A DNA stretch of 64,000 bases from Sphyrna mokarran (taxonomy: Eukaryota), in assembly GCA_024679065.1 (NCBI GenBank), contig JAGIQG010000016.1, forward strand, positions 2,542,001-2,606,000, written 5' to 3'. Under the pieces are notes generated by a model. That model was given only the letters and a program-made list of their open reading frames with translations. It did not search any database and had not been told where the DNA came from. The position numbers were made by a program, and so were the translations under genes. Each line of letters opens with the position of its first letter. Positions within the stretch are counted from its first letter, which is position 1. Positions 1-38,159 of the stretch are shown here, piece by piece.

Positions 1-402
1 CCCCCTCATTCTGTCTCTCCCCCACACAAGGGGAAACATCTCTACACCGACCCTATCGAAACCCTTTCCGGATTTCAAAGCCCTCGATCGGATCGCCCCC
101 TTTTCTTTCCCAGGGGAAAGAGCTCTGGCCTGTTCAGCCTCTCCTGATCATTCTGACCTCTCAGTCCTGGGATTATTCTTGTTAAATATTTGGTGTAATT
201 ATTCTGTAATCACTGGCCAGTTCAGACTCTTCTTGCTTTTTAATTCCTTGGCCATGTTTTCCCATGTAGTTAGGAAGAGGCCGGACTGGGTGAAAATGGA
301 GGCTGGGCCTGTGGAGCTCAGGGGTTGGATTACAGGATTCCGTGACGATTTTAGTCCAGCAACTCTGAGTCTTGCCTCCCTCTTGTTTTTCCAACATGGC
401 AG

Positions 403-486
403 CTGCCTCCGAGTACAAGAAACTGAAATCGATTTACAAGGAAGCGTTGGATTTTATCAAGAAACGCAGGGCCCTCAAGCCTACAG
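403..486 (+). CDS. SPACA6: SPACA6 internal coding exon (four-helix-bundle region): xASEYKKLKSIYKEALDFIKKRRALKPT
   Basis: Pyrimidine tract plus AG at 401-402 and GT at 487. The 84-nt phase 1-1 exon is amphipathic-helix-like and joins in frame to the next exon. Upstream exons are outside the window. Confidence 0.75.
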
Positions 487-728
487 GTAGAATTCCTCAC
501 CCACTCCATTCGCTGGGCGGGATGTTCCTGCGTGGGTGGAAAATCATTCCGTGAGGGGAAGTGGAGCTGGCAGAGATCTGAGGTGGCACTGGGCAGGGGT
601 GGGATGGGGGGAGCTCGATGGGCTGAATGGCCTCGGGGGGAAATCCAAAGGAGGGAGGGATTTTTGTGTTTATTCATTCGTGGGACGTGGGCATCGCTGG
701 CTGGCCAGCATTTATTGCCCATCCCTTA

Positions 729-1008
729 GGGTGGCACAGTGGTCAGCACTGCTGTTTCACAGCTCCAGGGACCTTCCCAGGTCACTTCCCAGGTTGAGTC
801 CCTGCTTGTGCGGAATCTGCACATTCTCCCCATGTCTGCGTGGGTTTCCTCCGGGTGCACCCATTTCCTTTCACAATCTGAAGGACGGTCTGGTTAGGGT
901 GCATTGAACCAAACAGGTGCTGGAGTGTGGCAACTAGGGGAATTTCACAGTAACTTCATTGCAGTGTTAAGATAAGCCTACTTGTGACTAATAAATAAAC
1001 TTTAACTT
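729..1008 (+). mobile_element. tRNA-derived SINE (HE1/V-SINE-like)
   Basis: ggtggcacagtggtcagcact A-box head, gggtttcctccgggtgc core and aataaataaacttta tail. Confidence 0.88.
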
Positions 1009-1731
1009 TATTTGCCCGAGGGCAGTTCAGAGTCAATCACATTGCTGTGCCTCTGGAGTCACATGTAGGCCAGACCGGGTAAAAATGGCAGATTTCCTTC
1101 CCTAAAGGGAACTGGATGGGTTTTTCTAACAATTGACAATAGTTTCATGGTCATTGTGTAGTCTGTGTTCTTCTTCGAATAGACAGGCTCAACTGGTCTA
1201 AAATAGAACATTCTTTATTGATCATCATTTAAAATTAGCAGAACAGTACACCTTTGAGTGAAACCCCTCTCATCCTTCCCAACTCCAGCAAGTGTCGGCC
1301 TGAAGAATGGCCCCTGATTCTCAAGCCAAAGAATGTAGCCGCTCAGAATAAGGACAGGGTATTGCACAGAAGGAGGCCATTTGTCCCTCTCTGATGTGCT
1401 AGCCCTTCTCTCTGACTGTCCAGTTAGTCCATCGCGTACGTGCTCTCTGACGCCATCGGTTACCCTGTATTTGACAGGGTGATCCTGGTAACTGATCCAT
1501 GCTCTCTCTGTCAATTGCTTAAGCCTGGGTGTGGAGTCAGAGCAAACTGAAGGGACATTGCAGAGACAGCGCTGTAAGCATGGTTTCCGATGTTTTGCGA
1601 TTGGAGATCTATTTAAATTAACCTGCTGTGCATTTAGATACTGGTGTTGTCTTGACAATTCTCAAAAATGCATCAAACCTCCTCAAATCTCCATCACTGA
1701 TAAAATCTCTGATGTGTTCATTTTCCCCTAG

Positions 1732-1800
1732 AATCATACGCAAGTCTCCTCGACAGTGTGGAAAAGGAAGTTCTGTACAAAGTATATCAACTCAAAGAAG
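1732..1800 (+). CDS. SPACA6: SPACA6 exon: ESYASLLDSVEKEVLYKVYQLKE
   Basis: ttttccccTAG acceptor and weak GTTTTT donor; 69 nt, phase 1-1. Ends in QLKE, as recalled for mammalian SPACA6 (…KVITQLKE). Confidence 0.8.
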
Positions 1801-1879
1801 GTTTTTCCTTTTACACCTCCTTTTACACCCGACTAGTCTTCACAGCCCCGTCTCCCCTCCAGCACAATTCCAAGCTCCA

Positions 1880-2515
1880 AGTCCCTCGGTTAGACCCACA
1901 CTGGGAGCACTGTGCACAGTTCCAGTCTCCATATCCCTCGGTTATACCCACACTCGGGGCACTGTGCACAGTTCCGGTCTCCGTATCCCTCGGTTAGACC
2001 CACACTCAGAGCACTGTGCACAGTTCCAGTCTCCATATCCCTCGGTTAGACCCACACTCAGAGCACTGTGCACAGTTCCAGTCTCCATATCCCTCGGTTA
2101 GACCCACACTGGGAGCACTGTGCACAGTTCCGGTCTCCATATCCCTCGGTTAGACCCACACTCGGAGCACTGTGCACAGTTCCGGTCTCCATATCCCTCG
2201 GTTAGACCCACACTCGGAGCACTGTGCACAGTTCCGGTCTCCATATCCCTCGGTTAGACCCACACTCGGAGCACTGTGCACAGTCCCGGTCTCCATATCC
2301 CTCGGTTAGACCCACACTCGGAGCACTGTGCACAGTCCAGTCTCCATATCCCTCGGTTAGACCCACACTCGGAGCACTGTGCACAGTTCCGGTCTCCATA
2401 TCCCTCGGTTAGACCCACACTCGGAGCACTGTGCACAGTTCCAGTCTCCATATCCCTCGGTTAGACCCACACTGGGAGCACTGTGCACAGTTCCAGTCTC
2501 CGTATCCCTCTGTTA
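1880..2515 (+). repeat. 52-bp minisatellite (about 12 copies) derived from CR1 ORF2
   Basis: Unit ccctcggttagacccacactcggagcactgtgcacagttccggtctccatat resembles the CR1 'VRPHLEYCVQFWSPY' coding segment. Confidence 0.9.
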
Positions 2516-2674
2516 AGCCTAATTGAAGTCTTTAAAATTCAGAAAGGGTTTTGATTGTGTCGATGAAGAAAATGTGCTTCCCCTTGTGTGGGAGAGAAAC
2601 CAGAACTAGGGGCCATCAATATGTGACAGTCACGCATAACTCCACTGGGGAAATCAGGTAAAGCTTCTTTACCA

Positions 2675-3445
2675 GAGAGTGGGGAGAATGTGGGACTCGC
2701 TCCCACGGGGAGTAGGGGAGAATGTGGGACTTGCTCCCACGGGGAGTAGGGGAGAATGTGGGACTCGCTCCCACGGGGAGTGGGGGAGAATGTGGGATTC
2801 GCTCCCACGGGGAGTGGGGGAGAATGGGGACTCGCTCCCAGGGAGGGGGAGAATGTGGGACTCGTCCCACGGGGAGAGGGGGAGAATGTGGGACTCGATC
2901 CCACGGGAGTGGGGAGAATGTGGGACTCGCTCCACGGGAGTGGGGGAGAATGTGGGACTCGCACCCACGGGGAGGGGGAGAATGTGGGACTCGCTCCCAC
3001 GGGAGTGGGGAGAATGTGGGACGCCCTCCCACAGGGAGTGGGGGAATGTGGGACGCTCCCAGGGGAGTGGGGAGAATGTGGGACTCGCTCCCACGGGAGT
3101 GGGGGAGAATGTGGGACGCGCTCCTAAGGGAGTGGGGAGAATGTGGGACTCGCTCCCACGGGAGTGGGGGAGAATGTGGGACTCGCTCCCACGGGGAGTG
3201 GGGGAGAATGTGGGACTCGCTCCCACGGGGGAGTGGGGGAGAATGTGGGACTCGCTCCCACAGGGGAGTGGGGGAGAATGTGGGACTCGCTCCCACGGGG
3301 AGAGTGGGGGAGAATGTGGGACTCGCTCCCATGGGGATTGGGGGAGAATGTGGGACTCACTCCCATGGGGAGTGGGGGAGAATGTGGGACTCACTCCCAT
3401 GGGGAGTGGGGGAGAATGTGGGACTCGCTCCTACGGGGAGCAGTT
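2675..3445 (+). repeat. About 33-bp G-rich minisatellite inside a CR1 3' end
   Basis: Unit ggggagaatgtgggactcgctcccacggggagt, flanked by CR1 sequence (2540-2675 and 3445-3590). Confidence 0.92.
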
Positions 3446-3659
3446 GAGATGAATAGTATTAATGTGTTTAGGGGGAATAGAAGGAGATGAGGGAGGGAGG
3501 GAGTGGGAGGAGACTCGTGTGGAGCAGAAACACAGGCACAGAGCAGACGGCCCGAATGGCCTGTCTCTGTGCTGTAATCTGAATCCAATGTACATTACCC
3601 GAAACTGGGTGAGAGATCTTCCTGAATATAATCTCTCTTTCTCTCTCTCTGTGCTGCAG

Positions 3660-3683
3660 CATCACCATGTAATTACACCTGTG
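3660..3683 (+). CDS. SPACA6: SPACA6 24-nt microexon: ASPCNYTC (CxxxC)
   Basis: (CT)n tract plus CAG acceptor and GTAAGT donor; phase 1-1. Corresponds to mammalian AQACIPPC. Confidence 0.85.
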
Positions 3684-3839
3684 GTAAGTCTTTTCATTTG
3701 TACTTACAATAAATAACTTCATTTATCTAGCGCCTGTCATTCCCTCTGGAAATCCCAAAGTGTTTCGCAGACACTGAAGGATATGTGAGGTCACTATTGT
3801 AATGTAGGGTGCGGAGTGGACATTTTGTGCACAGCAAGA

Positions 3840-4632
3840 TCCTATTATTGGGAGCAATAATAGGAAGAGAGATGATTACTGGAATGGGTGTAAATTGAGA
3901 GAGGCGGATACTCAGCGAGACCGTGGAGTCCCCGTGAATCAGTCGTTGAAAGTAAGCGTGCAGGTACAGCAGGCAGTAAAGGAGGCAAATGGTATGTTGG
4001 CCTTCATAGCGAGAGGATTGGAGTACAGGGGTAGGGATGTTTTACTGCAATTGTACAGGGCGTTGGTGAGGCCACACCAGGAGTATTGGGTGCAGTTTTG
4101 GTCTCCTTATCTGAGGAAGGATGTTCCTTGTTATAGAGGGAGCACAGTGAAGGTTTACCAGGCTGATTCCTGGGATGGCAGATCTGTCATATGAGGAGAG
4201 ACTGAGTGGGTTAGGATTATATTCACTGGGGTTTAGAAGAGTGAGGGGGGATCTGATAGAAACTTATAAAATTCACACAGGGTTAGACAGGGTAGATTCA
4301 GAAAGAATGTTCCCAATGGTGGGGGGAGTCCAGAACTAGGGGTCAGAGTTTGAGGATAAGGGATAAACCTTTTAGAACTGAGGTGAGGAGAAATTTCTTC
4401 ACCCAGAGAGTGGGGAATGTGTGGAATTCACTAAGACAGAAAATAGCTCAGGCCAAAACATTGTGTGATTTGAAGAAGAAATTAGATGTAGCTCTCAGGG
4501 CTAAAGGGAAATGGGGGGAAGGGGGTGGGGGGGTCAGGGTATCGAATTTGACGATCAGCCATGATCATAATGAATGGCAGAATGGGTTCGAAGAGCCGAA
4601 TGGCCTCCTCCTGCTTCTAGTTTTTATGTTTC
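3840..4632 (+). mobile_element. CR1 LINE 3' fragment
   Basis: LLQLYRALVRPH.EY.VQFWSPY and RRNFFTQRV.NVWNSL, with frameshifts. Confidence 0.92.
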
Positions 4633-5594
4633 TGAGTGAGAGTGACCCAGATCATCTGTTTTACCAGTGATGCTGGTTGAGGGACAAGTATTGTCTCTGG
4701 CACATTCGCCAGAGAGGAGGTTTTGTGCCGTGCCTCACACAGGCCCCGAGATTCTGTAGATGTTTAATGGTGATATCGCACTCACCAGCAATAGGGCTGT
4801 CACAGTCACCAGTACTTATCCTACAAACATGTCCCACCTCTTCACAGAAGGGAAATTGGACGGAGCTTGACCTTATGCCCCTCAAGGAGATACCAGAGCC
4901 GGAGAGAGACAGAGAGAGAGTGTGAGGTGGAGAGGTTTAAGGAGGGAATTCCAGAGTTTAGGGCTTCCCAGGCAGCTGAAGGCAAGGCCGCCAATGGCGG
5001 AGCGATGGGAATCGGGAGATGCTCAAGAGGCCGGAATTGGAGGAGTAGAGAGATTTCGGAGGGTTGCAGGAGAAAGGAAAGGTTGTAGGGGCTGGAGGAG
5101 GAGACAGAGATAAGAAGATAACAACTAGTAGCTGGAGTTGGCCATCTGGCCCCCCCGAGTCATTCACTTTGATCATGGCTGATCTTTGCATGGACTCAGC
5201 TCCATTTACCCACCCCTCTCATTGGGGTGGGTGGTCTTTGCTATGGGGGGGGGAGGTGGTGGGATTCAGATTCAGAACCCCAGAGGCGCACTGTGCGATT
5301 ACAATCATTGTAATCTCAGGGAGAGTTAGAATCTGTAAAATAATATTGGTGATTGCAGCAATTATAGCAGCCCCTGTTTGTACAGGGTACAGTTCGTGAC
5401 TTGTGTGTGAGCTGTCAGCGAATTGGAACCATGGACATTGCTGCGCCTAAGGCTTTGTGGGATCTTGCTGTCCCCAAAATGGCTACTGCAGGATCTTTTA
5501 CTATGTTCAGTTTGAGGTTCTCTGTGTTTATCTGATAGAGATTCGGGTTATTGTCTATTTTGCTGCCTCCTGTTACTAACCTTCTCTTCCACAG

Positions 5595-5675
5595 GGATTA
5601 ACATGGAATCCTTTTACTTTGACTGCCACTTATGTCAGATGAAAGGTTGTGAAGGCATCTCCTTCGAGTGTCCAA
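5595..5675 (+). CDS. SPACA6: SPACA6 hinge exon: GINMESFYFDCHLCQMKGCEGISFECP
   Basis: cttctcttccaCAG acceptor and GTAGGT donor; 81 nt, phase 1-1. Cys pattern FxCxxCxxxxC…CP is typical of IZUMO1/SPACA6/TMEM95. Confidence 0.9.
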
Positions 5676-5771
5676 GTAGGTCCGCGTTATCCGATTATTG
5701 AACTGTTAATGCACGGATACAGCAGCATCATCACTCAGACTTCCAGGCAACTGTGTACAACAAGGCAGCTT

Positions 5772-6985
5772 ACTAAATACTGACACACTCCCCAAAGAAT
5801 TGTCCCCTGTAAATACTGACACACTCCCCAAAGAATTGTCCCCTGTAAATACTGACACACTCCCCAAAGAATTGTCCCCTGTAAATACTGACACACTCCC
5901 CAAAGAATTGTCCCCTGTAAATACTGATCCACTCCCCAAAGAATTGTCCCCTGTAAATACTGATCCACTCCCCAAAGAATTGTCCCCTGGAAATACTGAT
6001 CCACTCCCCAAAGAATTGTCCCCTGTAAATACTGACACACTGCCCAAAGAATCGCCCCCTGTAAGTACTGATCCACTCCTCAGGGATTCTCCCTGTAAAT
6101 ACTGACACATTCCCCAGGGATCCCCCTGTAAATACCGACACACCCCTGGGGATTCCCCCCTGTAAATACTGACACACCCCTGGGGATTCCCCCCTGTAAA
6201 TACTGACACACTCCCTGGGGATTCCCCCTGTAAATACTGACACACTCTCCGGGGATTCCCCCTGTAAATACCGACACACCCCTGGGGATTCCCCCCTGTA
6301 AATACTGACACACTCTCCGGGATTCCCCCTGTAAATACTGACACACTCCCGGGGATTCCCCCCTGTAAATACTGACACACTCCCCGGGGATTCCCCCCTG
6401 TAAATACTGACACACTCCCCAGGGATTCCCCCTGTAAATACTGACACACTCCCTGGGGATTCCCCCTGTAAATACTGACACACTCTCCGGGGATTCCCCC
6501 TGTAAATACCGACACACCCCTGGGGATTCCTCCCTGTAAATACTGACACACTCCCCGGGGATTCCCCCTGTAAATACTAATGCATTCTCCGGGGATTCCC
6601 CCCTGTAAATACTGACACACTCCCTGGGGATTCCCCCTGTAAATACTGACACACTCCCCGGGGATTCCCCCTGTAAATACCGACACACCACTGGGGATTC
6701 CCCCCTGTAAATACTGACACACTCCCCGGGGATTCCCCCTGTAAATACTAATGCATTCTCCGGGGAATCCTCCTGTAAATACTGACACACTCCCTGGGGA
6801 TTCCCCCTGTAAATACTGACACACTCCCCGGGGATTCCCCCTGTAAATACCGACACACCCCTGGGGATTCCCCCCTGTAAATACTGACACACTCCCCGGG
6901 GATTCCCCCTGTAAATACTAATGCATTCTCCGGGGAATCCTCCTGTAAATACTGACACACTCCCCAGGGATACTCTCTGTAAATA
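5772..6985 (+). repeat. 35-36-bp minisatellite with two subtypes
   Basis: cctgtaaatactgacacactccccaaagaattgtc grading into …ccccggggattccc. Confidence 0.93.
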
Positions 6986-7057
6986 ATGGCACATTTCCCT
7001 ACTTTCTCTCCGTACCTCAGGGGAATCAGAAAAAATATCCCTCTTTCTTAAATGGTG

Positions 7058-7352
7058 GGTGGCACAGTGGCATAGGGGTTAGCACTGCTGCCTCACAGCT
7101 CCAGGGACCTGAGTTTGATTCCTGTCTCCCCATGTCTCAGCAGGTTTCCTCTGGGTGCTCCGGTTTCCTCCCACACTCCAAGCATGTGCGGGTTAGGTGC
7201 ATTGGCCTTACTAAATTGCCCCTTGGTGGCCTGGGATGTGTAGATCAGAGAGATTAGCAGGGTGAATATGTGGGGTTACGGGGATAGGGCTTGGGTGCAG
7301 ACTCGATGGGCCGAATGACCTCCTTCTGCACTATAGGGATTCTATGATTCCA
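7058..7352 (+). mobile_element. tRNA-derived SINE with CR1-type tail
   Basis: A/B boxes, core and gattctatgatt tail. Confidence 0.85.
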
Positions 7353-7394
7353 TGACTTGGCCTCCACAGCTTCCTGGTACGGCAAGCAAGAAAG

Positions 7395-7897
7395 AAGGCA
7401 AATGGTCTTCATAGTTAGAGGATTTAAATGTAGAGATAAGGATGTTTTGCTACAATTGTACAGGGCCTTGGTGAGGCCACACCTGCAGTATTGGGTGCAG
7501 CTTTGGTGTTCTTATCTGAGGAAGGATGTTCCTTGTTATAGAGGGAGCACAGCGAAGGTTTACCAGCTGATTCCTGGGATGGTAGGTCTGTCATATGAGG
7601 AGAGACTGAGTCGGTTAGGATTATATTCACTGAGTTTAGAAGAGTGAGAGGAGATCTGATAGAAACCTATAAAATTCACACAGGGTTAGACAGGGTAGAT
7701 TCAGAGAGAATGTTCCCAATGGTGGGGGGAGGCCAGAACCAGAGGCCATTATTTGAGAATAAGGAGAAATTTCTTTACCCAGAGAGTGGTGAATTTGTGG
7801 AATTCTCTCCCACAGAAAGTAGTTGAGGCCAAAAAGTTGTATGGTTTTAAGAAGAAATTAGATATAGCTCTTGGGGATAAAGGGGTCAGGGGATATG
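7395..7897 (+). mobile_element. CR1 LINE 3' fragment
   Basis: LYRALVRPHLQY, GDLIETYKI and FFTQRVVNLWNSLP. Confidence 0.92.
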
Positions 7898-7954
7898 CTT
7901 CTCATTTCTGTGTTTCTCTGAAAGGGACAAGTTCTGTCCCTTTCAGTCCTCCCC

Positions 7955-8540
7955 AGTTTGGTTTGATTTATGATTGTCACGTGTGGTGTAATACAGCGAA
8001 AAGTATTGTTTCTTGCGCATTATTCTGACAAAGCATACCATTCATAGACTACACAGTGGAGAAGGAAAGGAGGGAGTGCAGAATATAATGTTACAGGCAC
8101 AGATAGGGTGTGGAGAAGAGATCTAAAGCTTAATATAAAGTAAGTCCATTCAAAAGTCTGACGGCAGCAGGGGAGAAGCTGCTCTTGAGCCGCTTGGTAA
8201 GTTTCATCAGACTTTTGTATCTTTTTCCCAATGGAAGAAGTTGGAAGAGAGAATGTCCTGGGTGCGTGGAATCCTTAATTATACCGGCTGCTTTTCCCCG
8301 AGGCAGCGGGAAGTGTAGACAAAGTCAATGGCTGAGAGACTGGTTTGCGTGATGGACTAGGCTATGTTCATGACCCTTTGTAATTCCTTGCTGTCTTGGT
8401 CAGAGCAGGATCCCAGACCAAGCTTTGATACAAACAGAAAGAATGCTTTCTATGGGGCATCTGTATAGGTCAGTGAGAGTTATAGTGCACATGCCCAAAT
8501 TTCCTTAGTCTTCTGAGAAAGTAGAGGGGTTGGTGGGGCT
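7955..8540 (-). mobile_element. Rex1/Babar-type LINE 3' fragment
   Basis: Minus strand encodes PGHSLFQLLP.GKRYKSL….RLKSSF; (ATCAA)n-like tail. Confidence 0.8.
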
Positions 8541-8861
8541 TACACTACATGAGGAAAAGTCTGATGGTTGGTCCGCAAGTTTTTGATTGATCAAGAGGTT
8601 GGTGTGGAAGATGAACCAGGGAACTCTTCATGGCAATCTCTTGACCAATCACAGTGGACATGTCACTTCCTTTGAAATTTGGTATTCTTGTGTGTGTCCT
8701 GATGGATGGCTTCACCTCGTGTCTCAGCAAAACCTTTCTTGAAGCCACATCAGGAGCCAGTGATTAGTATGCCCTGACCCACTCTGATAGTATGTGTTCT
8801 ATTGGTTATCTCACACCAGGGAAATCCAGTCTAATTTGTCTATTCTTGTCCATTCCTGCAG

Positions 8862-8965
8862 TTCAAGATGTAACGGTGAAGGAGACTGGCCATGTGTCTC
8901 TGAAATGTCAGTCCAACTTTACAATCCCCAAGATTGACACAATCACATGGATGTATGCCTCTCAT
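8862..8965 (+). CDS. SPACA6: SPACA6 Ig domain, first half: IQDVTVKETGHVSLKCQSNFTIPKIDTITWMYASH
   Basis: CAG acceptor and GTGAGT donor; 104 nt, phase 1-0. Matches mammalian VQDVTV…C..NF..P…W. Confidence 0.92.
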
Positions 8966-9034
8966 GTGAGTTTTTGACCTTCAACCTTCATTCTTTTGCT
9001 TTCAAAGTTCTCACTTTGCAATTTCCTATTTGTT

Positions 9035-10545
9035 GCAAAATCTAATCTACACCCCTCCCCACTCTCCCCTCCCTGCACCCCCATTGGTCAAAATCTAATC
9101 TACACCCCTCCCCACTCTCCTCTCTCCTGCACCCCATTGGTCAAAATCTAATCTACACCCCTCCCCACTCTCCCCTCCCTGCACCCCCATTGGTCAAAAT
9201 CTAATCTACATGCTCCCCACTCTCGCCTCCCTGCACTGGCATTGGTCAAAATCTAATCTACACCCCTCCCCACTCTCGCCTCCCTGCACTCCCATTGGTC
9301 AAAATCTAATCTACACCCCTCACCAGTCTTGCCTCCCTGCACCCTCATTGGTCAAAATCTAATCTACATCTCCTCACTCTCGCCTCCCTGCACTCCCATT
9401 GGTCAAAATCTAATCTACACCCCTCACCACTCTTGCCTCCCTGTACCCACATTGGTCAAAATCTAATCTACATCCTCCTCACTCTCCCCTCCCTGCACCC
9501 CCATTGGTCAAAATCTAATCTACATGCTCCCCACTCTCGCCTCCCTGCACTGGCATTGGTCAAAATCTAATCTACACCCCTCCCCACTCTCGCCTCCCTG
9601 CACTCCCATTGGTCAAAATCTAATCTACACCCCTCACCAGTCTTGCCTCCCTGCACCCTCATTGGTCAAAATCTAATCTACACCCCTCCCCACTCTCCCC
9701 TCCCTGCACCCCCATTGGTCAAAATCTAATCTACATGCTCCCCACTCTCGCCTCCCTGCACTGGCATTGGTCAAAATCTAATCTACACCCCTCCCCACTC
9801 TGCCTCCCTGCACTCCCATTGGTCAAAATCTAATCTACACCCCTCCCCACTCTCCCCTCCCTGTACCCACATTGGTCAAAATCTAATCTACATCCTCCTC
9901 ACTCTCGCCTCCTGCACTCCCATTGGTCAAAATCTAATCTACACCCCTCCCCACTCTCACCTCCCTGCACTCCATTGGTCAAAATCTAATCTACACCCCT
10001 CCCCACTCTCACCTCCCTGCACTCCCATTGGTCAAAATCTAACCTACACCCCTCCCCACTCTCCCCTCCCTGCACCCCCATTGGTCAAAATCTAATCTAA
10101 ACCCCTCCCCACTCTCCATTCCCTGCACCCGCATTGGTCAAAATCTAATCTACATCCTCCCCACTCTCCCCTCCCTGCACCCGCATTGGTCAAAACCTAA
10201 TCTACATCCCTCCCCACTCTTGTCTCCCTGCCAGCCCATTGGTCAAAATCTAATCTACATCCTCCCCACTCTTTCCTCCCTGCACTCCCATTGGTCAAAA
10301 TTAATCTACACCCCACCCCACTCTCCCCTCCACCCTCCCCTCCCTGCACCACATTGGTCAAAATCTAATCTACACCCCTCCCCACTCTCCCCTCCCTGCA
10401 CCCCCATTGGTCAAAATCTAATCTACACCCCTCCCCACTCTCCCCTCCCTGCACCCTCATTGGTCAAAATCTAATCTACACCCCTCCCCACTCTCCCCTC
10501 CCTGCACCCCCATTGGTCAAAATCTAATCTACATCCTTCCCACCT
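9035..10545 (+). repeat. 53-bp C-rich minisatellite
   Basis: Unit cattggtcaaaatctaatctacacccctccccactctcccctccctgcacccc. Confidence 0.93.
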
Positions 10546-11865
10546 CTATCTAACTCTATATAACACTGTACAACTCTGTATATAATGCTATCTAACTCTA
10601 TATAACACTGTACAGCTCTGTATAGAACTCTATCTAACTCTATATAATACTGTACAGCTCTATATATAATGCTATCTAACTCTATATAATACTGTACAGC
10701 TGTGTATATAATGCTATCTAACTCTATATAACACTGTACAGCTCTGTATATAATGCTATCTAACTCTATATAACACTGTACAGCTCTGTATATAATGCTA
10801 TCTAACTCTATATAACACTTTACAGCTCTGTATATAATGCTATCTAACTCTATATAACACTCTACAGCTCTGCATATAATGCTATCTAACTCTATATAAC
10901 ACTGTACAGCTCTGTATATAATGCTATCTAACTCTATATAACACTGTACAGCTCTGTATATAATGCTATCTAACTCTATATAACACTGTACAGCTCTGTA
11001 TAGAACTCTAACTCTATATAACACTGTACAGCTCTGTGTATAATGCTATCTAACTCTATATAACACTGTACAGCTCTATATATAATGCTATCTAACTCTA
11101 TATAACACTGTACAGCTCTGTATATAATGCTATCTAACTCTATATAACAGTGAACAGCTCTGTATAGAACTCTAACTCTATATAACACTGTACAGCTCTG
11201 TATATAATGCTATCTAACTCTATATAACACTGTACAGCTCTGTATAGAACTCTAACTCTATATAACACTGTACAGCTCTGTTTATAATGCTATCTAACTC
11301 TATATAACACTGTACAGCTCTGTATATAATGCTATCTAACTCTATATAACACTGTACAGCTCTGTATATAATGCTATCTAACTCTATATAACACTGTACA
11401 GCTCTGTATATAATGCTATCTAACTCTATATAACACTTTACAGCTCTGTATATAATGCTATCTAACTCTATATAACACTGTACAGCTCTGTATATAATGC
11501 TAACTCTATATAACACTGTACAGCTCTGTATATAATGCTATCTAACTCTATATAACACTGTACAGCTCTGTTTATAATGCTATCTAACTCTATATAACAC
11601 TGTACAGCTCTGTATATAATGCTATCTAACTCCATATAACACAGTACAGCTATGTATAGAACTCTATCTAACTCTATATAATACTGTACAGCTCTGTATA
11701 TAATGCTAACTCTATATAACACTGTACAGCTCTGTATATAATGCTATCTAACTCTATATAACACTGTACAGCTCTGTATATAATGCTATCTAACTCTATA
11801 TAACACTGTACAGCTCTGTATAGAACTCTATCTAACTCTATATAAATACTGTACACTCTGTATCT
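10546..11865 (+). repeat. 42-bp AT-rich minisatellite
   Basis: Unit ctctatataacactgtacagctctgtatataatgctatctaa; source of the 14-aa periodic ORFs. Confidence 0.93.
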
Positions 11866-11896
11866 AAGTCAAGCTGTATAACTCGTACCATTACAG

Positions 11897-12053
11897 ATCA
11901 GGACAGATGTGATGGCACAGTTTCAGATTCTACACTCCGGTGATGATGATACAATCAGTATCCGCCACGTTAAAATGAGTAATGCTGGTACCTATGCCTG
12001 TGAAGTCATCGAAGCGAATTTAGTCTTACTGAGGCGATTCTTTTATCTCACTG
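11897..12053 (+). CDS. SPACA6: SPACA6 Ig domain, second half: IRTDVMAQF…NAGTYACEVIEANLVLLRRFFYLT
   Basis: CAG acceptor and GTTAGT donor; 157 nt, phase 0-1. Has the GTYxC F-strand and an R-x-F-F/Y-L G-strand like SPACA6 (ARLYFFLNV). Confidence 0.92.
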
Positions 12054-12284
12054 GTTAGTCTCGTTGAAATTCTTCTTCTTCCCTCTGCCTGTCTCTCTCT
12101 CTCTATCTCTCACTCTTGCCCGTCTCTCTCTCTCTTACTCTCTCTCTCTATCCCCCTCTCTTGCCTTACTCTATCTTGTTATCTCTCTCCCTCAGCCACT
12201 CTTTCTCTGTCACGCCTTCTGTCCTTCTTTCCCTTTTCCTCTTGCTGTTTCTCTGTCAATTTCTCTCTGTCAGAGAGATAATGC

Positions 12285-13113
12285 TGCACTGTCAGAGGGT
12301 CAGCGCTGAGGGAGTGCCGCACTGTCAGAGGGTCAGTGCTGAGGGAGTGCCGCACTGTCAGAGGGTCAGTGCTGAGGGAGTGCTGCACTGTCAGAGGGTC
12401 AGTGCTGAGGGAGCGCTGCACTGTCAGAGGGTCAGTGCTGAGGGAGTGCCGCACTGTCAGAGGGTCAGTGCTGAGGGAGTGCCGCACTGTCAGAGGGTCA
12501 GTGCTGAGGGAGCGCCGCACTGTCAGAGGGTCAGTGCTGAGGGAGTGCCGCACTGTCAGAGGGCAGTGCTGAGGGAGTGCCGCACTGTCAGAGGGTCAGT
12601 GCTGAGGGAATGCGCCCGCACTGTCAGAGGGTCAGTGCTGAGGGAGTGCCGCACTGCCAGAGGGTCAGTGCTGAGGGAGTGCCGCACTGTCAGAGGGTCA
12701 GTGCTGAGGGAGTGCCGCACTGCCAGAGGGTCAGTGCTGAGGGAGTGCCGCACTGTCAGAGGGTCAGTGCTGAGGGAGTGCCGCACTGCCAGAGGGTCAG
12801 TGCTGAGGGAGTGCCGCACTGTCAGAGGGTCAGTGCTGAGGGAGTGCCGCACTGTCAGAGGGTCAGTGCTGAGGGAGTGCCGCACTGCCAGAGGGTCAGT
12901 GCTGAGGGAGTGCCACACTGCCAGAGGGTCAGTGCTGAGGGAGTGCCGCACTGTCAGAGGGTCAGTGCTGAGGGAGTGCCGCACTGTCAGAGGGTCAGTG
13001 CTGAGAGGGAGTGCCGCACTGTCAGAGGGTCAGTGCTGAGGGAGTGCTGCACTGTCAGAGGGTCAGTGCTGAGGGAGTGCCACACTGTCAGAGGGTCAGT
13101 GCTGAGGGAGCGC
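12285..13113 (+). repeat. 33-bp SINE-derived minisatellite (cactgtcagagggtcagtgctgagggagtgccg)
   Basis: Direct tandem repeat with homogeneous units. Confidence 0.95.
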
Positions 13114-13537
13114 TGATCTTGGTGCTGACAGATCGGTACGTGTGAATTACCTGGCTCAGAACTAAGCTGTCAGCTTCTTGGATGGGATTAGACCCTGCTT
13201 TCCCCTTTATCAGTGTGAATTCCTGGCGGATTCTGTACAGCACAGAGTGTCAGAGGTTCATCCCATGAAGTACGCCTGGAAGATCAGTGACAAAACCTCC
13301 CAGCACAAGGACACATTGGGCAGGTTAATTTGTTTGGGGAATTTCTTCCCCACTGTCTTTCAAATTAAACAGAGGCACCGGGCTGCCCCTGGGTAACAGA
13401 TCCCACGGTCAGTCATTAGAAGAGGTGAGGGTTTGTGTGGAGGGGGGGGGCGGGATTTCTTCCCAGTGTCCTGGGGTCATATTTATCCATCACCGAATAT
13501 TGCTGAATACAAACTGCTGATCTGGATCATTGTCACA

Positions 13538-13830
13538 TTGCTGTGCGTGGGATCTTGCTATGTGAGGGATCTTGCTGTGCGTGGGATCTTGCTATGCATG
13601 GAGATTCTTGCTGTGCGTAGGATCTTGCTGTGCGTGGGATCTTGCTGTGCATGGGGGAATCTTGCTGTGTGTGGGATCTGTGCATGGGGGGTTCTTGCTG
13701 TGTGTGGGATCTTGCTGTGCACGGGGGGAATCTTGCTGTGCGTGGGATCTTGCTGTGCACGGGGGAATCTTGCTGTGCGTGGGATCTTGCTGTGCGTGGG
13801 ATCTTGCTGTGCGTGGGATCTTGCTGTGCG
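13538..13830 (+). repeat. 17-19-bp minisatellite (gggatcttgctgtgcgt) inside a Deu-domain SINE remnant
   Basis: Preceded by ccagtgtcctgg…atatttatcc…cattgtcacattgctg SINE core. Confidence 0.85.
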
Positions 13831-13935
13831 TATATTGACACTCCAGTGTTGGAACATTAGTGAATGTGAAATAGTTTGAGGCGATGCTGAGGGACACTCA
13901 ACCCTCTTGTTCTGTATCTCCCTCCACCTCGGTAG

Positions 13936-14131
13936 TCACCCGCAGCACTCTGCAAAGCAGTATCGACCTGCAGGGAATGTTTCGGGATGTTTTGCTGGAA
14001 AAGCGGACAACGCTGAAGACTCCCACCGCCAGACCCATCCCGCCTCCGGATCAACAGGTCGACAAACAGACCGAATCCCAGCTCACGGTCGCCATCGCCA
14101 TGACAACGCTCCTCGTAGTTTTGCTTGGAAT
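13936..14131 (+). CDS. SPACA6: SPACA6 stalk and transmembrane exon: VTRSTLQSSIDLQGMFRDVLL…QLTVAIAMTTLLVVLLG
   Basis: TAG acceptor and GTGAGT donor; 196 nt, phase 1-2. LQxxFRxVL motif followed by a hydrophobic helix. Confidence 0.88.
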
Positions 14132-14324
14132 GTGAGTAAATCGATTTTCCCCATTGAGTGCCCAGATTCAGACCATTCGGCCCATCTGGATTCCTGCCCC
14201 ACACACCAGCCTTCTCCCTGCCCCCACCTCTCCATCTTCCCCCATCACCATCCCCTTCTATTCCTTTCTCCCTCCTGTGTTTATCCAGCTTCTCCCTTCA
14301 ACACATTCATATCTTCACCTCATC

Positions 14325-14770
14325 GACTCCCCGTGAGGAGTGAGTCCCACATTCTCCCCCACTCCCCGTGGGAGCGAGTCCCACATTCTCCCCCACTCCC
14401 CGTGGGAGCGAGTCCCACATTCTCCCCCATCCCCGTGGGAGCGAGTCCCACATTCTCCCCCACTCCCCGTGGGAGCGAGTCCCACATTCTCCCCCACTCC
14501 CCGTGGGAGCGAGTCCCACATTCTCCCCACTCCCCGTGGGAGCGAGTCCCACATTCTCCCCACTCCCCGTGGGAGCGAGTCCCACATTCTCCCCACTCCC
14601 CGTGGGAGCGAGTCCCACATTCTCCCCCACTCCCCGTGGGAGCGATTCCCACATTCTCCCCCACTCCCCGTGGGAGCGATTCCCACATTCTCCCCCACTC
14701 CCCGTGGGAGCGAGTCCCACATTCTCCCCACTCCCCGTGGGAGCGAGTCCCACATTCTCCCCACTCTCTG
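14325..14770 (-). repeat. Same 33-bp CR1-derived minisatellite, inverted
   Basis: Minus frame reads EIRRRFFTQRVGRMWDSLPRGV repeated. Confidence 0.92.
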
Positions 14771-15271
14771 GGTAAAGAACCTTCTCCTGATTTCCTGGTT
14801 GGATTTATTAATGACTGTCACAGATCGATGGCCCCCTCATTCTGATCTCTCCCCCACACAGGGAGAAACAGCTGTACGCCGACCCTATCGCAATCCTTTC
14901 CCCATTCCAACCTGATGCGCCAAGTAGATGCGCCAAGTTTGGTGGCGTTTAAGAGGTTAGTTGATAAGTATATGGAAGAGAAGGGAATGGTTTAGTTTGG
15001 AGGGGCATTGCTTTTTATATTGGTCGGCGCAACATCGAAGGCCGAAGGGCCTGTTCTGCGCTGTAATGTTCTATGTTCTATTTTTCCCTCAATCGGGTCA
15101 CCCCCTCTCAGCCTTCTCTTTCCCAGAGAAAAGAGCCCCGGCCTGTTCAGCCTCCTGATTCTGACCTCTCAGTCCTGGGATCATGCTGTGTAATATCAGA
15201 ATCTTTGAGACATCCCAAGAATGAGTGAGGAGTTATGCCAATGCAGGTTTTTTTCCGTTCTGTCCCCTCAG

Positions 15272-15305
15272 TGCTATTTATCGATGGTCAACAAGGGAAA
15301 CTTGA
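15272..15305 (+). CDS. SPACA6: SPACA6 last coding exon: IAIYRWSTRET*
   Basis: tctgtcccctCAG acceptor; phase 2 joins in frame. Short tail with an aromatic-RW motif like mammalian FFRWYCSGN*. Confidence 0.82.
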
Positions 15306-15712
15306 GACATGTGCGGGGAGCGTGATGTAAAGAGAGCCCAGACTGTGATGGCCCCCACGGTTGAACAGCTGCAGCAAATCAAAGGGATGAGGATGGACAA
15401 GAAGCCAGGATCTCAGGAGTGTCCTCAGAGTAACGAGAATCATTTATTTTCAATGAAAATGAATTTAATTTTATCTCTTGTAATTCTCACTCCTGTTGTG
15501 TTTCTCTGGTCTACAACATGCCAGGATTTGTAAACACCGACCAGCGGTGTCCTTGCCCCCACCCCAAATACCACCCCCCATATTCGCCCACCTCCACCAT
15601 ACCTACAGCAGCTGATCCCCCCACAACCCAATCTAAATTCCTCCATACAAAGCACCAAGACACAAAAAGTGTATTAGCAAAAAATCACAGCAAGGTCAGT
15701 GTCATCTCCATC

Positions 15713-16366
15713 ACCGTCAGAGGGTCAGTGCTGAGGGAGTGCCGCACTGTCAGAGGGTCAGTGCTGAGGGAGTGCCGCACTGTCAGAGGGTCAGTGCTGA
15801 GGGAGTGCCGCACTGTCAGAGGGTCAGTGCTGAGGGAGTGCCGCACTGTCAGAGGGTCAGTGCTGAGGGAGTGCCGCACTGTCAGAGGGTCAGTGCTGAG
15901 GGAGTGCCGCACTGTCAGAGGGTCAGTGCTGAGGGAGTGCCGCACTGTCAGAGGGTCAGTGCTGAGGGAGTGCCGCACTGTCAGAGGGTCAGTGCTGAGG
16001 GAGTGCCGCACTGTCAGAGGGTCAGTGCTGAGGGAGTGCTGCACTGTAGAGGGTCAGTACAGCGCCGCACTGTCAGAGGGTCGGTGCTGAGGGAGCGCCG
16101 CACTGTCAGAGGGTCGGTGCTGAGGGAGGCCGCACTGTCAGAGGGTCGGTGCTGAGGGAGCGCCGCACTGTCAGAGGGTCAGTGCTGAGGGAGCGCCGCA
16201 CTGTCAGAGGGTCGGTGCTGAGGGAGCGCCGCACTGTCAGAGGGTCAGTGCTGAGGGAGCGCCGCACTGTCAGAGGGTCAGTGCTGAGGGAATGATGCAC
16301 TGTCAGAGGGTCAGTGCTGAGGGAATGATGCACTGTCAGAGGGTCGGCGCTGAGGGAATGATGCAC
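15713..16366 (+). repeat. 33-bp SINE-derived minisatellite
   Basis: Same unit as 12285; followed by SINE core (gtggatgtaaaag…ttctctccagtgtcctg). Confidence 0.95.
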
Positions 16367-17524
16367 TATCCAATGTATCAATTTTAGATTCACTCTCTGT
16401 TGGCCATTTACAGTGGATGTAAAAGGATGCACGGTTTTTATTTCTGGGAAAAGCAGAGAAAGTTCTCTCCAGTGTCCTGAGGCAAATTTTTATCCACCCA
16501 TTAGTACTATGAAAGAAAAGCCAGGAGCTTCCCTCATTACAACTTTCTGTAACCAGATTAACTCAGAGTCATCAAAATCAGTCAGTGACTCCAAGGACTG
16601 CTCCACCTACTGAGCACTGTCTAAAACTACACCGTGACTGTTTACATAAAAATGTTGAATGGGAACCGTTACAATGCTATTACAGGGCACTAAGTTCGCA
16701 AACATATGATTGCAGGTTGGTGGACCAGGAATGCAGTAGATTTAAATAATATTTAGAGATATATATTCGTAAGTTACAGAGCATTGACTATTGAGAAACT
16801 TCACTCTTCTATTGAGCTCACTGTCAAGATTTTAGCGCTGGTATAGATGTTACATCTTCAAACGCTGTGACAGCGGAGAGGCAAAAAACGTCATTCACTG
16901 AAAATAATGGCTGAGGAAGATTGATGGTGGGTTGTGTCAGTGACGATGCTATCACTGTGGAGTGGCGTTCCTGGCTCCTCACGGCAGCCCACTGTTCCTC
17001 CACATGGTTAGTGCTGTTAGGTTAGTCCTCCTTCTGATCGGGCTCCTACTCCGCACACAGTGTCCCCTGTCAACGAGAGATGGATTGACACTGAGTGCAA
17101 AATGTTATACAGTTTCAATTGAAACACCTTCCACACATTCCAGTTTCATGAGATAAGCATGGACAGTAATTTAATTATTTCTATATTTAGCACTTCTAGT
17201 GTCAACGCAAACGTAAACAGTTGCAACTCATTAACTCTTTACTGAACTTTAACACTTCACTGAACATCAACTGTAACTAATCATCAACTTTAACTATTTA
17301 ACTGAAAATAGATACCACTGAGTTTTGGAAAATCTTGGCCAAAAGATATCCTCGCTGTAGAATCTATCTTCTCCTTCTCTGAAGCATCCTTCAGGGTACA
17401 AGTTTTGTTGCAATGGTTGGTCTCTTCAAGTTATTGCTGCCAAACAAATGGCTGCAAGTCTTTTATCCCATAATTCTTCCCTCGCTTCCGGAAGATTCTT
17501 TGTCATCCAGCCAATTATGTAACC

Positions 17525-17935
17525 AAAGAACAGTACAGCCCAGGAAACAGGCCCTTTCAGCCTTCTGAGCCTGCGCCGTTCATTGGTCCAACTAGACTAT
17601 TCGTTTTTATCCCTCCACTCCCAGTCCCCACCACTCTTTGTGTAAAATACGTCCCTCTGATATTTGAGTTAAACCTTGTCCCCCTCATCTTGAGCCTGTA
17701 ACCCCTCGTGATCGCCACCTCCGACCTGGGAAAAAGCTTCCCACTGTTCACCCTATCTATACCCTTCATAATTTTATACACCTCTGTTAGGTCTCGCCTC
17801 ATTCTCCGTCTTTCCAGGGAGAACAACCCCAGTTTACCCAATCTCTCCTCATAGCTAAGACCCTCCATACCAGGCAACATCCTGGTAAACCTTTTCTGTA
17901 CTCTCTCCAAAGCCTCCACGTCCTTCCGGCAGTGA
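17525..17935 (-). mobile_element. CR1 LINE 3' fragment
   Basis: LERVQKRFTRMLPG…LFSLERRR…YFTQRVV. Confidence 0.92.
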
Positions 17936-18050
17936 GAGAAACTCATCACGTGGTTTGAACATCCAGTGAAACTATATTTTTGAACGATACCATTGCTCTT
18001 TGCTCATTTGATATGTACCAGATATAGCAGACATAAAAATCAGAGACACA

Positions 18051-18754
18051 GGGCCCGATTCTCCCATCACCATGTGCTGGATTTTTTTGGTGCGTTGGGT
18101 TGGGAGATGCATTTCAGCCATTTTGCGGGATTTGCGCATGCAATCCCAATGCATCTGGATCTCTCACTGCCCGGGAATCTGGCACCATCGGGAACAGGCA
18201 GGGAGATCATTTTAATCTATTTTTAATGTTATTTAAATGTCATTATTGGGCCCAGGACAGAATTCTCTGAGTCCAATAACATCTCCCACCCCACCAGGAA
18301 TATTTCACTCCGGTGAAACACTCGAGCTTCCCACTTACAGGGAACCAGCAAGAGACTCTGCCGGAGTGAAGAAGGGGGGGCAATAAGGCAGTGGAGGGTA
18401 CCCCTGCGCTTGGGAGTGCCAGCCTGTTGACTTGGTATTGCCCAAGGGGCAAAATTTCCATGCCCAGGGGCACCTTGGCACTGCCCAGCAGGCAATGCCA
18501 ATGCTGTGGTGCCTAGGGAGCAGGGCTGGGGGAGGAAGGGGAGTCTCTGAGGGTAGAGCCTAGGGGATGGGGGAGGGGGTCCTACTGCCATTGTCGGTCA
18601 GGTCAGGAGGGAGGCCAGCGATCAGGGCAGGCTGACGTGGGTGGGAAGGGGTGGTCTACCAGGAGGTATCTGCCTCCCATGAGGTTAGGGATCTGACTCC
18701 CAGGGAGTGGCTGTGCGATCCACTATGTCTTCAGGAATGGGGAAGTGGGGGCCG

Positions 18755-18794
<40 letters not shown>

Positions 18795-19146
18795 TGGGGG
18801 GGGGGGGGGGGGGGGGATGGTGTTGTGAGCTGTGAGCGCTCCAGGACGGGGCTTGGCCCAGGAATGCTTGTGGGGACCCACGTTTGGGACAGAGTGGGAG
18901 CGACAGGGCAGCGCTGCAGGGGTCTCTAGTAAAACAGGAACCTGACCGTTTGGGGCCCCTGCGCGTGTGCAGAGTTCCAGAGCTGTTATCCCCGCCCCCA
19001 CCCTGAGCTTTTACTGATATTCACAACTGTGGCCTGTCCATTGCACAGAGCATGGGAGATTCCAGTGTGAAGTCCCACTGAAAAAGAACAACTGTGAACT
19101 ACACCAGCTTTCCCGCAAATTCGGATTTTTTTAGAAGAATCGCACC
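18051..19146. mobile_element. Non-autonomous DNA transposon (PIF/Harbinger-like MITE)
   Basis: Begins gggcccgattctccc and ends gaagaatcgcacc; both ends homologous to 50767-51574 and 58270-59410. Confidence 0.65.
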
Positions 19147-19804
19147 TCCCCCACACCTCGCCCACACCTCCCCCACAACGTAAACACTTCCCTATCTAGA
19201 GAGCTTCCGATCACAGCTCCCAGACCACAGCATCTTTACTACCTACATCTGGCTTTAATCTTTACACTAACCAGAAAAAAATCGCAGCATGTTTCACTCT
19301 CAGCCAGAATAGCTATTTTAAAGCCACTATTCCCATTATTGTTGTTTAATTATTGTTATAGACATTCTCTCACCACCCAAAACAGTGAGCAGATTCCCGA
19401 TCCACAGCACACAGTCCTGGATTATCAGCTGTCAGGGTAACAAGGTGACTGTGTCTCAGTTACTTCCAGATCAACTCTTCTAAACAATCTTCATCAACAC
19501 AAACTCTCCACAAACGTGAAGTCATATCCCTTACCTGTTCACCCATCACACCCCCCTCCCCCCGCCCCCCCACAGTGTTTACTGACTGGCTCCCAGCCCA
19601 GGAACATAACAATTTTAAAATATCGTCCTTCTTTAAAATTTATTTATGGAATACCATTTATTGTGACGGAATTCAAATCCAAATACAACACAACTGTGTT
19701 TCAGGATTAATAGTCCAGTAATAATACCAGGAGGCCATTGCTTCCTGTCAATTTTTGCCATGGCCCTTGTCATCCCCTCCCTATCTCTGTAACCTCCTCA
19801 AGCC

Positions 19805-26355: not shown

Positions 26356-26500
26356 NNNNNNNNNNNNNNNNNNNNNNNNNNNNNNNNNNNNNNNNNNNNN
26401 NNNNNNNNNNNNNNNNNNNNNNNNNNNNNNNNNNNNNNNNNNNNNNNNNNNNNNNNNNNNNNNNNNNNNNNNNNNNNNNNNNNNNNNNNNNNNNNNNNNN
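26356..26500. other. Assembly gap (145 N)
   Basis: Run of N. Confidence 1.
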
Positions 26501-27060
26501 CTCTGCTGGGTTTTATGGTTCCAGGTCTTACAGACATAGATGATGTGATTCTCGTCCTCTTCCAGCACCCTGACCAGACCGTCTCTCAGAGCCCAGGAAG
26601 CAGCCCGGGTTTTCCCTGGCTTCTTATCCGAATACAGCCGCATCCACTGCCAGTAACACAGGGCACCGTAGGCCACGATGCCCAGCACCAGCTTGACTGG
26701 ACTCACTGACCACCTCCACATGGCTGTGGGTCAACGGATACGGGGAGACACGAGAAGCTTCAGGGGACCGGGAGCTGGACAGTGGTTCCAAGACAAGAGG
26801 TGTGTCAGTCACGCAGGGTCTGATTCAGTGAGGAACCCTCCCCAGTCATGAGGAAGACCTGCCATCAGAACGTAGGACTGAGGGTCCAGGAAGCAGAGCC
26901 CTGAGGAGCAGTGAGCTGGAGAACATGGAATGGAGTCACTGACTGGCCTGATAAGTATCCAGGGAGATACATCAAACTCTCCAAATACACAACTCCATTG
27001 TGAGGTCAGGGGAGAATGGGCTGATCACCATTGTTACCCATACAGGGACATCCATTTCCA

Positions 27061-38007: not shown

Positions 38008-38159
38008 GTAACCGAGAGCCACTCACTGTGTTGACCTCTCTCTCTCTCTGTTGTGATATTCTGGCCATTCGGCCCCTCTGCTCCAGGCTGGCATTCTTGA
38101 TCCACACCAGCTTCTTCCCACCCCATCTCCATATCTATCATGGGAACAGTGTGGATATT

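Follow-up and report, generated by a model that had tools for sequence, protein, structure and literature searches.

SPACA6 has been described as conserved across vertebrates (PMC8762341; PMC13192892), and the IZUMO1/SPACA6/TMEM95 superfamily as present in sharks (PMC12615630). The function of SPACA6 is treated in PMC8762341, 10.1101/2023.07.27.550750 and PMC11052572: zebrafish spaca6 knockouts fail at binding (PMC8762341), and the hinge of the protein is predicted to wrap IZUMO1 (PMC11052572). Human SPACA6 carries two hinge disulfides (Cys124-Cys147 and Cys128-Cys153), an additional helix 1-2 disulfide that IZUMO1 lacks (Cys41-Cys55), and a set of surface positions conserved among mammals, namely Pro126/127, Glu132, Arg135, Ser144 and Arg233 (PMC9482655). 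Nine elasmobranch species, sharks as well as rays, already have a protein named SPACA6 in RefSeq. A literature text search, which does not reach into range-mapping figures, found no paper devoted to shark SPACA6, and shark names occur 0 times in the searchable text of the supplements of PMC8762341 and PMC9482655 (one picture-only file of the latter excluded).

The locus described here lies in a 64-kb window of the genome of Sphyrna mokarran, the whole stretch of DNA analyzed, and is best explained, with high probability, as a shark SPACA6 orthologue whose product is likely to act in a sperm complex with IZUMO1 and TMEM81. The gene is genuine but unremarkable, and its presence in elasmobranchs was already known. 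The sequence-only reading had proposed that an orthologue in this fish would place SPACA6 at the base of jawed vertebrates; the gene is indeed present on both sides of the split between sharks and bony fish, but because RefSeq annotates it in nine elasmobranchs, its being older than that split is database knowledge and not new. The locus carries little weight as a discovery, and its residual value lies in a clean set of exons, one of them a micro-exon absent from the nearest RefSeq model, and in two hinge changes shared across elasmobranchs.

Exon model of the gene

Eight exons on the + strand span positions 403-15305 (Table 1). Their boundaries, read from the sequence and checked by script together with the frame, are all AG/GT (acceptors AG in 8/8, donors GT in 7/7, that is, 15 canonical splice sites), with the phases 1-1-1-1-0-1-2 first proposed for them; once spliced, they give 249 codons with 0 internal stops, followed by a TGA at 15303-15305. 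A tblastn search with the catshark (Scyliorhinus canicula) protein recovered 6 of the 8 exons at E <= 3e-7, on one strand and in order, while the 24-nt exon 3 reached only E 0.29 and exon 8 gave no separate match. Exon 7 alone, used as query, led to 3 proteins among 15 candidates, all three named shark SPACA6 (best E 1e-25). The eight spliced exons align with catshark SPACA6 with zero gaps or insertions, at identities per exon from 6/11 to 25/28.

Table 1. Coding exons of the SPACA6 gene in the window, with encoded features and supporting similarity
Exon	Positions	Strand	Boundaries	Phase	Encoded features	Similarity
1 (first in window, internal)	403..486	+	AG/GT	1/1	One of the four bundle helices	tblastn E 3e-7 against residues 73-99 of catshark SPACA6; catshark identity 21/28
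2	1732..1800	+	AG/GT	1/1	Last bundle helix	tblastn E 3e-7; catshark identity 20/24
3 (24-nt micro-exon)	3660..3683	+	AG/GT	1/1	Hinge CxxxC (human Cys124/Cys128); N-x-T sequon at human Pro126-Pro127	Catshark identity 8/9
4	5595..5675	+	AG/GT	1/1	Hinge beta-hairpin, second CXXC, then C-x6-CP	tblastn E 2e-12
5	8862..8965	+		1/0	Ig-like domain, first half; first Ig cysteine; NFT sequon	tblastn E 2e-16; weak Pfam Ig_3 match
6	11897..12053	+		0/1	Ig-like domain, second half; second Ig cysteine; G strand without sequon	tblastn E 2e-18; sub-threshold Pfam V-set, I-set and Izumo-Ig
7	13936..14131	+	AG/GT	1/2	LQxxF juxtamembrane helix, proline-rich stalk, most of the transmembrane helix	Lone-exon query: shark SPACA6, best E 1e-25
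8 (last coding)	15272..15305	+			End of the transmembrane helix, short cytoplasmic tail, TGA	Catshark C-terminus identity 6/11, no gap

Coding sequence makes up 5% of the span and the introns are rich in repeats, so that the earlier description of the gene as hidden holds for its short exons and means nothing beyond that. Residues 1-72 of catshark SPACA6 had no tblastn match of meaningful score anywhere in the 64-kb window, and for this reason the signal peptide and first CXXC are placed upstream of it. Judging from this alignment, the window holds about the last three quarters of the gene; the claim that the gene is intact is therefore limited to the in-window part, since some 72 N-terminal residues lie upstream.

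The spliced model contains eight cysteines, arranged as CxxxC, CxxC, C, CP and an Ig pair, the two sequons NYT and NFT, and a single hydrophobic 19-mer (mean Kyte-Doolittle 2.6) followed by a short tail. An Ig-like domain with its two cysteines, a single C-terminal transmembrane helix and a short tail, features of SPACA6 given in PMC8762341, are all present. The four hinge cysteines align with those of human and bony-vertebrate proteins and would form the same disulfides. In the IST superfamily (IZUMO1/SPACA6/TMEM95), two CXXC motifs connect helix 1' with the hairpin of the hinge. The hinge CXXC is present in the window model; the N-terminal one, which would lie upstream here, occurs in 6 of 9 elasmobranch proteins, and the models of the remaining three are truncated at the N-terminus. 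Cysteines matching the helix 1-2 pair (38 and 54) occur in the catshark and Mustelus orthologues, the equivalent region of the present gene lying upstream of the window. Pfam scans returned no SPACA6-specific family, and single exons gave sub-threshold Ig matches only.

The mammalian SPACA6 locus hosts a miR-99b/let-7e/miR-125a cluster. No Rfam family reaches its gathering score anywhere in the 64-kb window, miR-99, let-7 and miR-125 included, and positions 1-20000 gave weak, repeat-borne Rfam matches only. Such a cluster would be expected further upstream, outside the window. Text searches of the literature yielded nothing on topic about SPACA6 synteny.

Orthology by sequence, tree and fold

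The gene is almost certainly a SPACA6 orthologue. The spliced model is 83.5% identical by BLASTP to the Mustelus asterias RefSeq SPACA6 over 237 aligned residues, and 77% identical, gap-free over 245 residues, to that of Scyliorhinus canicula. A hidden Markov model built only from bony-vertebrate SPACA6 (n=19) scored the window model at 194 bits (E 2e-61, single-sequence scale), compared with 5.4 bits for the best of 500 shuffles and at most 6.0 for three V-set exons of the window. In the opposite direction, the catshark protein found human SPACA6 (7TA2) in the PDB at E 1e-14, IZUMO1 being absent at E <= 0.01; a shark-only profile found SPACA6 at E 5e-14, with IZUMO1 absent among 12 hits at E <= 0.1; and a 38-sequence profile ranked SPACA6 at E 4e-58 against 3e-8 for IZUMO1. 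The reciprocal check thus favours SPACA6 both ways, from shark proteins to the PDB and from the bony-only model to the window, which is narrower than a whole-proteome reciprocal BLAST. Among the profile hits outside sharks that were looked up (n=20), 18 carry the name SPACA6 or SPACA6-like and 2 fall in 90% clusters with such proteins; these 20 named hits include no holocephalan or lamprey protein, which does not amount to absence, as 108 of 133 hits were left unnamed.

Fold comparisons were made with a predicted structure of the catshark orthologue (AlphaFold, built with 38 named sequences, pLDDT 78.6) and not of the window protein, which includes only the last two bundle helices. The catshark model matched 7TA2 with a TM of 0.82 and an rmsd of 2.8, against 0.47 and 7.6 for IZUMO1, and a second comparison gave a Z of 16.8 (rmsd 2.6, 214 aligned) against 11.2 (rmsd 8.2). 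The distorted four-helix bundle with a triangular face, a trait of the IST superfamily, is seen in this model, aligned to 7TA2 over residues 26-248. A SPACA6 fold is accordingly predicted for the window protein, through its catshark orthologue, and the comparison with the human ectodomain suggested at the outset came out well ahead for SPACA6.

These rankings bear on whether the locus could instead be IZUMO1 or TMEM81, or a SPACA6-like but unrelated member of the Ig superfamily. The lone Ig half-exon does match generic Ig-superfamily chains first in the PDB (CEACAM1, CAR), with no SPACA6 in the best 60 of 149 matches, and weakly matches Pfam Izumo-Ig; as a query it is too short to be informative. 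Whole-protein sequence and fold tests all rank SPACA6 far above IZUMO1, the Pfam IZUMO bundle family is matched by 0 of 4 full-length elasmobranch proteins (E <= 0.1), and Izumo-Ig reaches 16-18 bits in four elasmobranch proteins against a cut-off of 26.7. Moreover, the bundle helices are present, whereas TMEM81 has no bundle. Such an identity is contradicted by these data, its probability being negligible, and the initial assignment to a cartilaginous-fish SPACA6, neither IZUMO1 nor a generic Ig-superfamily protein, stands.

An unrooted SPACA6 tree of 20 rows, built without IZUMO1 or TMEM81 as outgroup, places the window as the sister of Mustelus (100/99), inside carcharhiniform sharks (99/96), and groups the elasmobranchs in one clade (100/100). 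Elasmobranch and teleost clades are recovered with starred support, consistent with vertical descent, and the tetrapod forks are unresolved. The tree also helps to weigh the idea of a recently inactivated copy, open in the window and broken in its upstream exons or promoter, for which the placement of the 5' part outside the window leaves room: the short terminal branch (0.088), the canonical splice sites, the 249 open codons and the retention of all cysteines make it very improbable.

Hinge changes and the probable role of shark SPACA6

The extra hinge residue relative to human SPACA6, noted from the sequence at first, is present in the window model as C-x6-CP, compared with C-x5-CP in the human protein and in those of the bony vertebrates that the pattern matched. 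This insertion occurs in 9/9 elasmobranch rows covering the site (window included) and in 0/17 bony proteins (17 of 19 matched by the pattern). An N-x-T replaces the conserved Pro-Pro in 6/7 elasmobranch rows with residues there, against 0/9 bony rows. Judged on these alignments, the insertion and the N-x-T site of the hinge are both features of elasmobranchs at large. Two further differences were rejected as shark-specific. The G-strand sequon is absent from the window, as first observed; among the 20 rows aligned, it occurs only in 4/5 tetrapods, and since the 5/5 ray-finned fish rows also lack it, its absence is not read as a shark loss. Likewise, Pro126/127, Glu132, Arg135, Ser144 and Arg233 are all changed in the window, which counts against a fully conserved SPACA6, although variation at most of these positions is found in bony vertebrates too, so that the loss of the hinge salt-bridge network is not taken as shark-specific.

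By analogy with mouse and zebrafish, shark SPACA6 would very probably keep a conserved sperm role, likely in egg binding and fusion. The product would cross the membrane once and combine a four-helix bundle, a hinge locked by disulfides and an Ig-like domain; it is likely carried on sperm in complex with IZUMO1 and TMEM81 and engaging the egg surface. From the same two species, expression would be expected in testis, SPACA6 and IZUMO1/TMEM81 would stabilise each other, and the cleft between the IZUMO1 and SPACA6 bundles would bind an egg ligand. To call the protein a fusion factor, as was done initially, is too restrictive, since zebrafish lacking it fail at the binding step.

A true orthologue that has acquired other partners or another role in elasmobranchs, for instance through a hinge glycan altering IZUMO1 packing or the egg ligand met, would draw on the two elasmobranch-wide changes and on the predicted wrapping of IZUMO1 by the hinge. 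It is nonetheless unlikely: the eight cysteines of the window are all kept, the catshark model fits human SPACA6 with an rmsd of 2.6-2.8 A, and the shark-to-bony identity of 23-30% is ordinary for such a fast-evolving family. More speculative still is that the elasmobranch hinge, rebuilt with a glycan site for the proline patch and a one-residue insertion, might reshape the IZUMO1-SPACA6 docking surface and point, in these fishes, to an egg partner of a third kind, distinct from both JUNO and egg Bouncer. Both hinge changes are worth noting when modelling the sperm complex at the jawed-vertebrate root.

Comparison with described SPACA6 and IZUMO1 proteins

The closest described protein, the partial Mustelus asterias SPACA6 (XP_078063094.1), is the sister of the window gene in the tree; its RefSeq model lacks two exons that are present in the window, the 24-nt hinge micro-exon, with an 8-residue gap exactly there, and the last one. 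Scyliorhinus canicula SPACA6 X1 (XP_038670831.1, 321 aa) shares the hinge insertion and the NYT and NFT sites, and includes the N-terminal 73 residues (signal peptide, first CXXC and second cysteine pair) whose equivalents here lie upstream. The human ectodomain (7TA2; PMC9482655) has the same domain order and cysteine pattern. In its alignment with catshark SPACA6, the catshark hinge is longer by one residue, the Ig domain has two gaps of one residue each, and the Asn243 sequon is missing from the catshark protein; in the window, the human Glu132/Arg135/Ser144/Arg233 network is replaced by Met/Phe/Met/Leu and Pro126-Pro127 by N-x-T. IZUMO1 (5F4E, 5JK9, 5B5K) has the IST-superfamily architecture in common and ranks second in profile and fold searches, as a far weaker match than SPACA6 by both E value and TM.

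The coding region and its shark relatives

The eight spliceable SPACA6 exons proposed by the sequence-only reading are present, with AG acceptors in all eight, GT donors in seven of seven and phases 1-1-1-1-0-1-2. Joined, they form an open, cysteine-keeping, single-pass SPACA6 coding region of 249 codons up to its TGA, with eight cysteines, the expected NYT and NFT sequons, one hydrophobic stretch long enough to span the membrane, and a short tail. Every exon aligns without insertion with the SPACA6 X1 protein of the catshark Scyliorhinus canicula (XP_038670831.1, 321 aa), so that homology sets the junctions to the residue. The first exon lacks a start codon and starts in phase 1, and nothing in the window meaningfully matches catshark residues 1-72, which indicates that the window begins within an intron; about three quarters of the gene is visible. 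A copy broken upstream, in the part beyond these open codons, is very improbable.

The window sequence is vertebrate DNA rich in repeats. By eye, the SPACA6 introns are packed with varied minisatellite arrays and LINE-like fragments, which give rise to most of the long false ORFs that were listed. Because the donor past exon 7 holds an in-frame TGA, a transcript that kept intron 7 would encode a protein stopping just past most of the transmembrane helix, with loss of the tail.

Features of the window
Feature	Position	Strand	Remarks
SPACA6 exon 1	403-486	+	AG acceptor, GT donor
SPACA6 exon 2	1732-1800	+	AG acceptor, GT donor
SPACA6 exon 3	3660-3683	+	24 nt; AG acceptor, GT donor
SPACA6 exon 4	5595-5675	+	AG acceptor, GT donor
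SPACA6 exon 5	8862-8965	+	AG acceptor, GT donor
SPACA6 exon 6	11897-12053	+	AG acceptor, GT donor
SPACA6 exon 7	13936-14131	+	AG acceptor, GT donor
Donor with in-frame TGA	14132-14137	+	past exon 7
SPACA6 exon 8, last coding	15272-15305	+	AG acceptor, TGA at 15303-15305
Minisatellite arrays, LINE-like fragments	1890-2510, 2680-3430, 5770-6980, 9040-10540, 10550-11860, 12290-13110		SPACA6 introns, by eye
N gap	26356-26500		
Open stretch	26503-26718	-	interrupted by the N gap
BTG/Tob-family gene, four exons	37835-38007, 39872-40009, 41784-41994, 43428-43634 (span 37835-43634)	+	Pfam BTG E 2e-18, 6e-13
Three V-set Ig exons	52250-52708, 55083-55490, 60445-61053	-	Pfam V-set E 2e-9 to 5e-9
Hydrophobic leader-like stretch	near 61570-61640	-	beside V-set exons

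With the in-frame part of exon 7 as lone query, three proteins out of 15 candidates were retrieved, all RefSeq shark SPACA6, and further searches found SPACA6 named in nine elasmobranch species (Scyliorhinus canicula, S. torazame, Mustelus asterias, Stegostoma tigrinum, Chiloscyllium plagiosum, Heterodontus francisci, Narcine bancroftii, Mobula birostris and, named '-like', Hypanus sabinus). SPACA6 is therefore already known in cartilaginous fish, and the novelty first claimed is not supported. Published work states that Spaca6 homologues are present across vertebrates (PMC8762341; PMC13192892) and that the IZUMO1/SPACA6/TMEM95 superfamily occurs in sharks, the member being unspecified in the text (PMC12615630); Tmem81 has been reported from lampreys, hagfishes and cartilaginous fishes. 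The literature on SPACA6 with cartilaginous fish or sharks, and on Izumo1 with chondrichthyes, yielded no paper dealing specifically with SPACA6 in sharks, and published range figures or supplements may show sharks explicitly.

The spliced model shares 83.5% identity with Mustelus asterias SPACA6 and 77% with the catshark protein (245 residues, zero gaps). Unlike the window, the Mustelus model (XP_078063094.1), the nearest in RefSeq, lacks the last exon and shows a gap of 8 residues that coincides exactly with the 24-nt hinge micro-exon, which holds two conserved cysteines; both absences are probably annotation or assembly gaps. No row in the searches for SPACA6 relatives was marked as the window's own protein, so the Sphyrna mokarran copy may be unannotated.

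Orthology to SPACA6

It is almost certain that the gene is a SPACA6 orthologue, and the support goes beyond database names, since searches in both directions bore out the assignment. Among solved structures, the catshark protein matched human SPACA6 (the ectodomain, 7TA2) at E 1e-14, with IZUMO1 absent from its three structure-library matches at E <= 0.01, and a shark-only profile gave the same outcome. A 38-sequence profile matched SPACA6 at E 4e-58 and IZUMO1 at E 3e-8, which means that IZUMO1 is present in the library and ranks far lower. In the other direction, a profile from 19 bony-vertebrate SPACA6 proteins found the window model at 194 bits, as compared to a maximum of 5.4 bits among 500 shuffles and of 6.0 among the three unrelated V-set exons in the window.

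The shark profile, in an unindexed search, yielded 133 matches, very long multi-Ig proteins being interleaved; 20 of the best-scoring non-shark matches of SPACA6-like length were named, these long proteins and lower matches lying outside them. Eighteen of the 20 are SPACA6 or SPACA6-like (ray-finned fish, coelacanth, amphibians, lizards and one bird), and two share a 90% cluster with such proteins. A 20-row gene tree without outgroup placed the window as sister to Mustelus (100/99) inside carcharhiniform sharks (99/96), with all elasmobranchs grouped (100/100). The bundle-hinge-Ig fold is predicted on the catshark orthologue, whose AlphaFold model, made in place of the window protein's (38 sequences, pLDDT 78.6), lies nearer 7TA2 (TM 0.82, rmsd 2.8, Z 16.8) than IZUMO1 (TM 0.47, rmsd 7.6, Z 11.2). 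That the exons belong to a different gene is extremely improbable.

Neighbouring genes

An Rfam scan of the window gave no family at threshold; the mammalian SPACA6 locus is reported to host a miR-99b/let-7e/miR-125a cluster. The BTG/Tob-family gene, 22 kb downstream of SPACA6, has 242 open codons (frame and splice sites checked) and an atlas BTG cluster score of 0.94. Its layout is presumably like that of BTG3/BTG4, and human BTG3 and BTG4 lie on the chromosomes with the other two miR-99/100-let-7-miR-125 clusters; the gene could thus be a paralogue from genome duplication that was lost from the neighbourhood of SPACA6 in mammals. Further downstream, the three V-set exons (mutual identity 61-71%) appear from their sequences to be a tandem multi-V-domain gene or a small gene cluster, which may be B7/butyrophilin-like. 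The open stretch beside the N gap, with a transmembrane-like segment and charged tail, had zero Pfam matches and no meaningful atlas match, and may have arisen by chance or belong, as an exon, to another gene.

Hinge, sequons and putative role

The extra hinge residue noted relative to human SPACA6 is real and common to all nine elasmobranch rows (aligned sequences) covering the hinge; 17 of 19 bony-vertebrate proteins have the shorter spacing, the other two not being matched by the pattern. The NYT sequon sits at the position of human Pro126-Pro127, which belong to conserved patch 3 according to the SPACA6 structural literature (PMC9482655); N-x-T occurs there in 6/7 elasmobranch rows with residues at that position and 0/9 bony rows. 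The NFT sequon is patchy (5/10 elasmobranch rows). On the G strand, the sequon at human Asn243 is indeed missing in the window, and in 10/10 elasmobranch rows; it is found in 4/5 tetrapod rows and missing in 5/5 ray-finned fish rows, so a shark loss was rejected.

In zebrafish sperm, Izumo1, Spaca6 and Tmem81 are reported to co-deplete and co-precipitate, and the predicted egg-ligand cleft lies between the IZUMO1 and SPACA6 bundles (10.1101/2023.07.27.550750; PMC11052572); SPACA6 mutants are described as defective at binding in zebrafish and at fusion in mouse (PMC8762341). By analogy with such species, a conserved sperm role of shark SPACA6 with IZUMO1 and TMEM81 is very probable: it would be expressed in spermatids and assemble with both partners, the cleft between the two bundles being the putative egg-ligand site. 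A SPACA6 with an altered role or partner is unlikely. In the window, hydrophobic residues replace the human hinge network Glu132/Arg135/Ser144/Arg233, at positions that are also variable among bony vertebrates.
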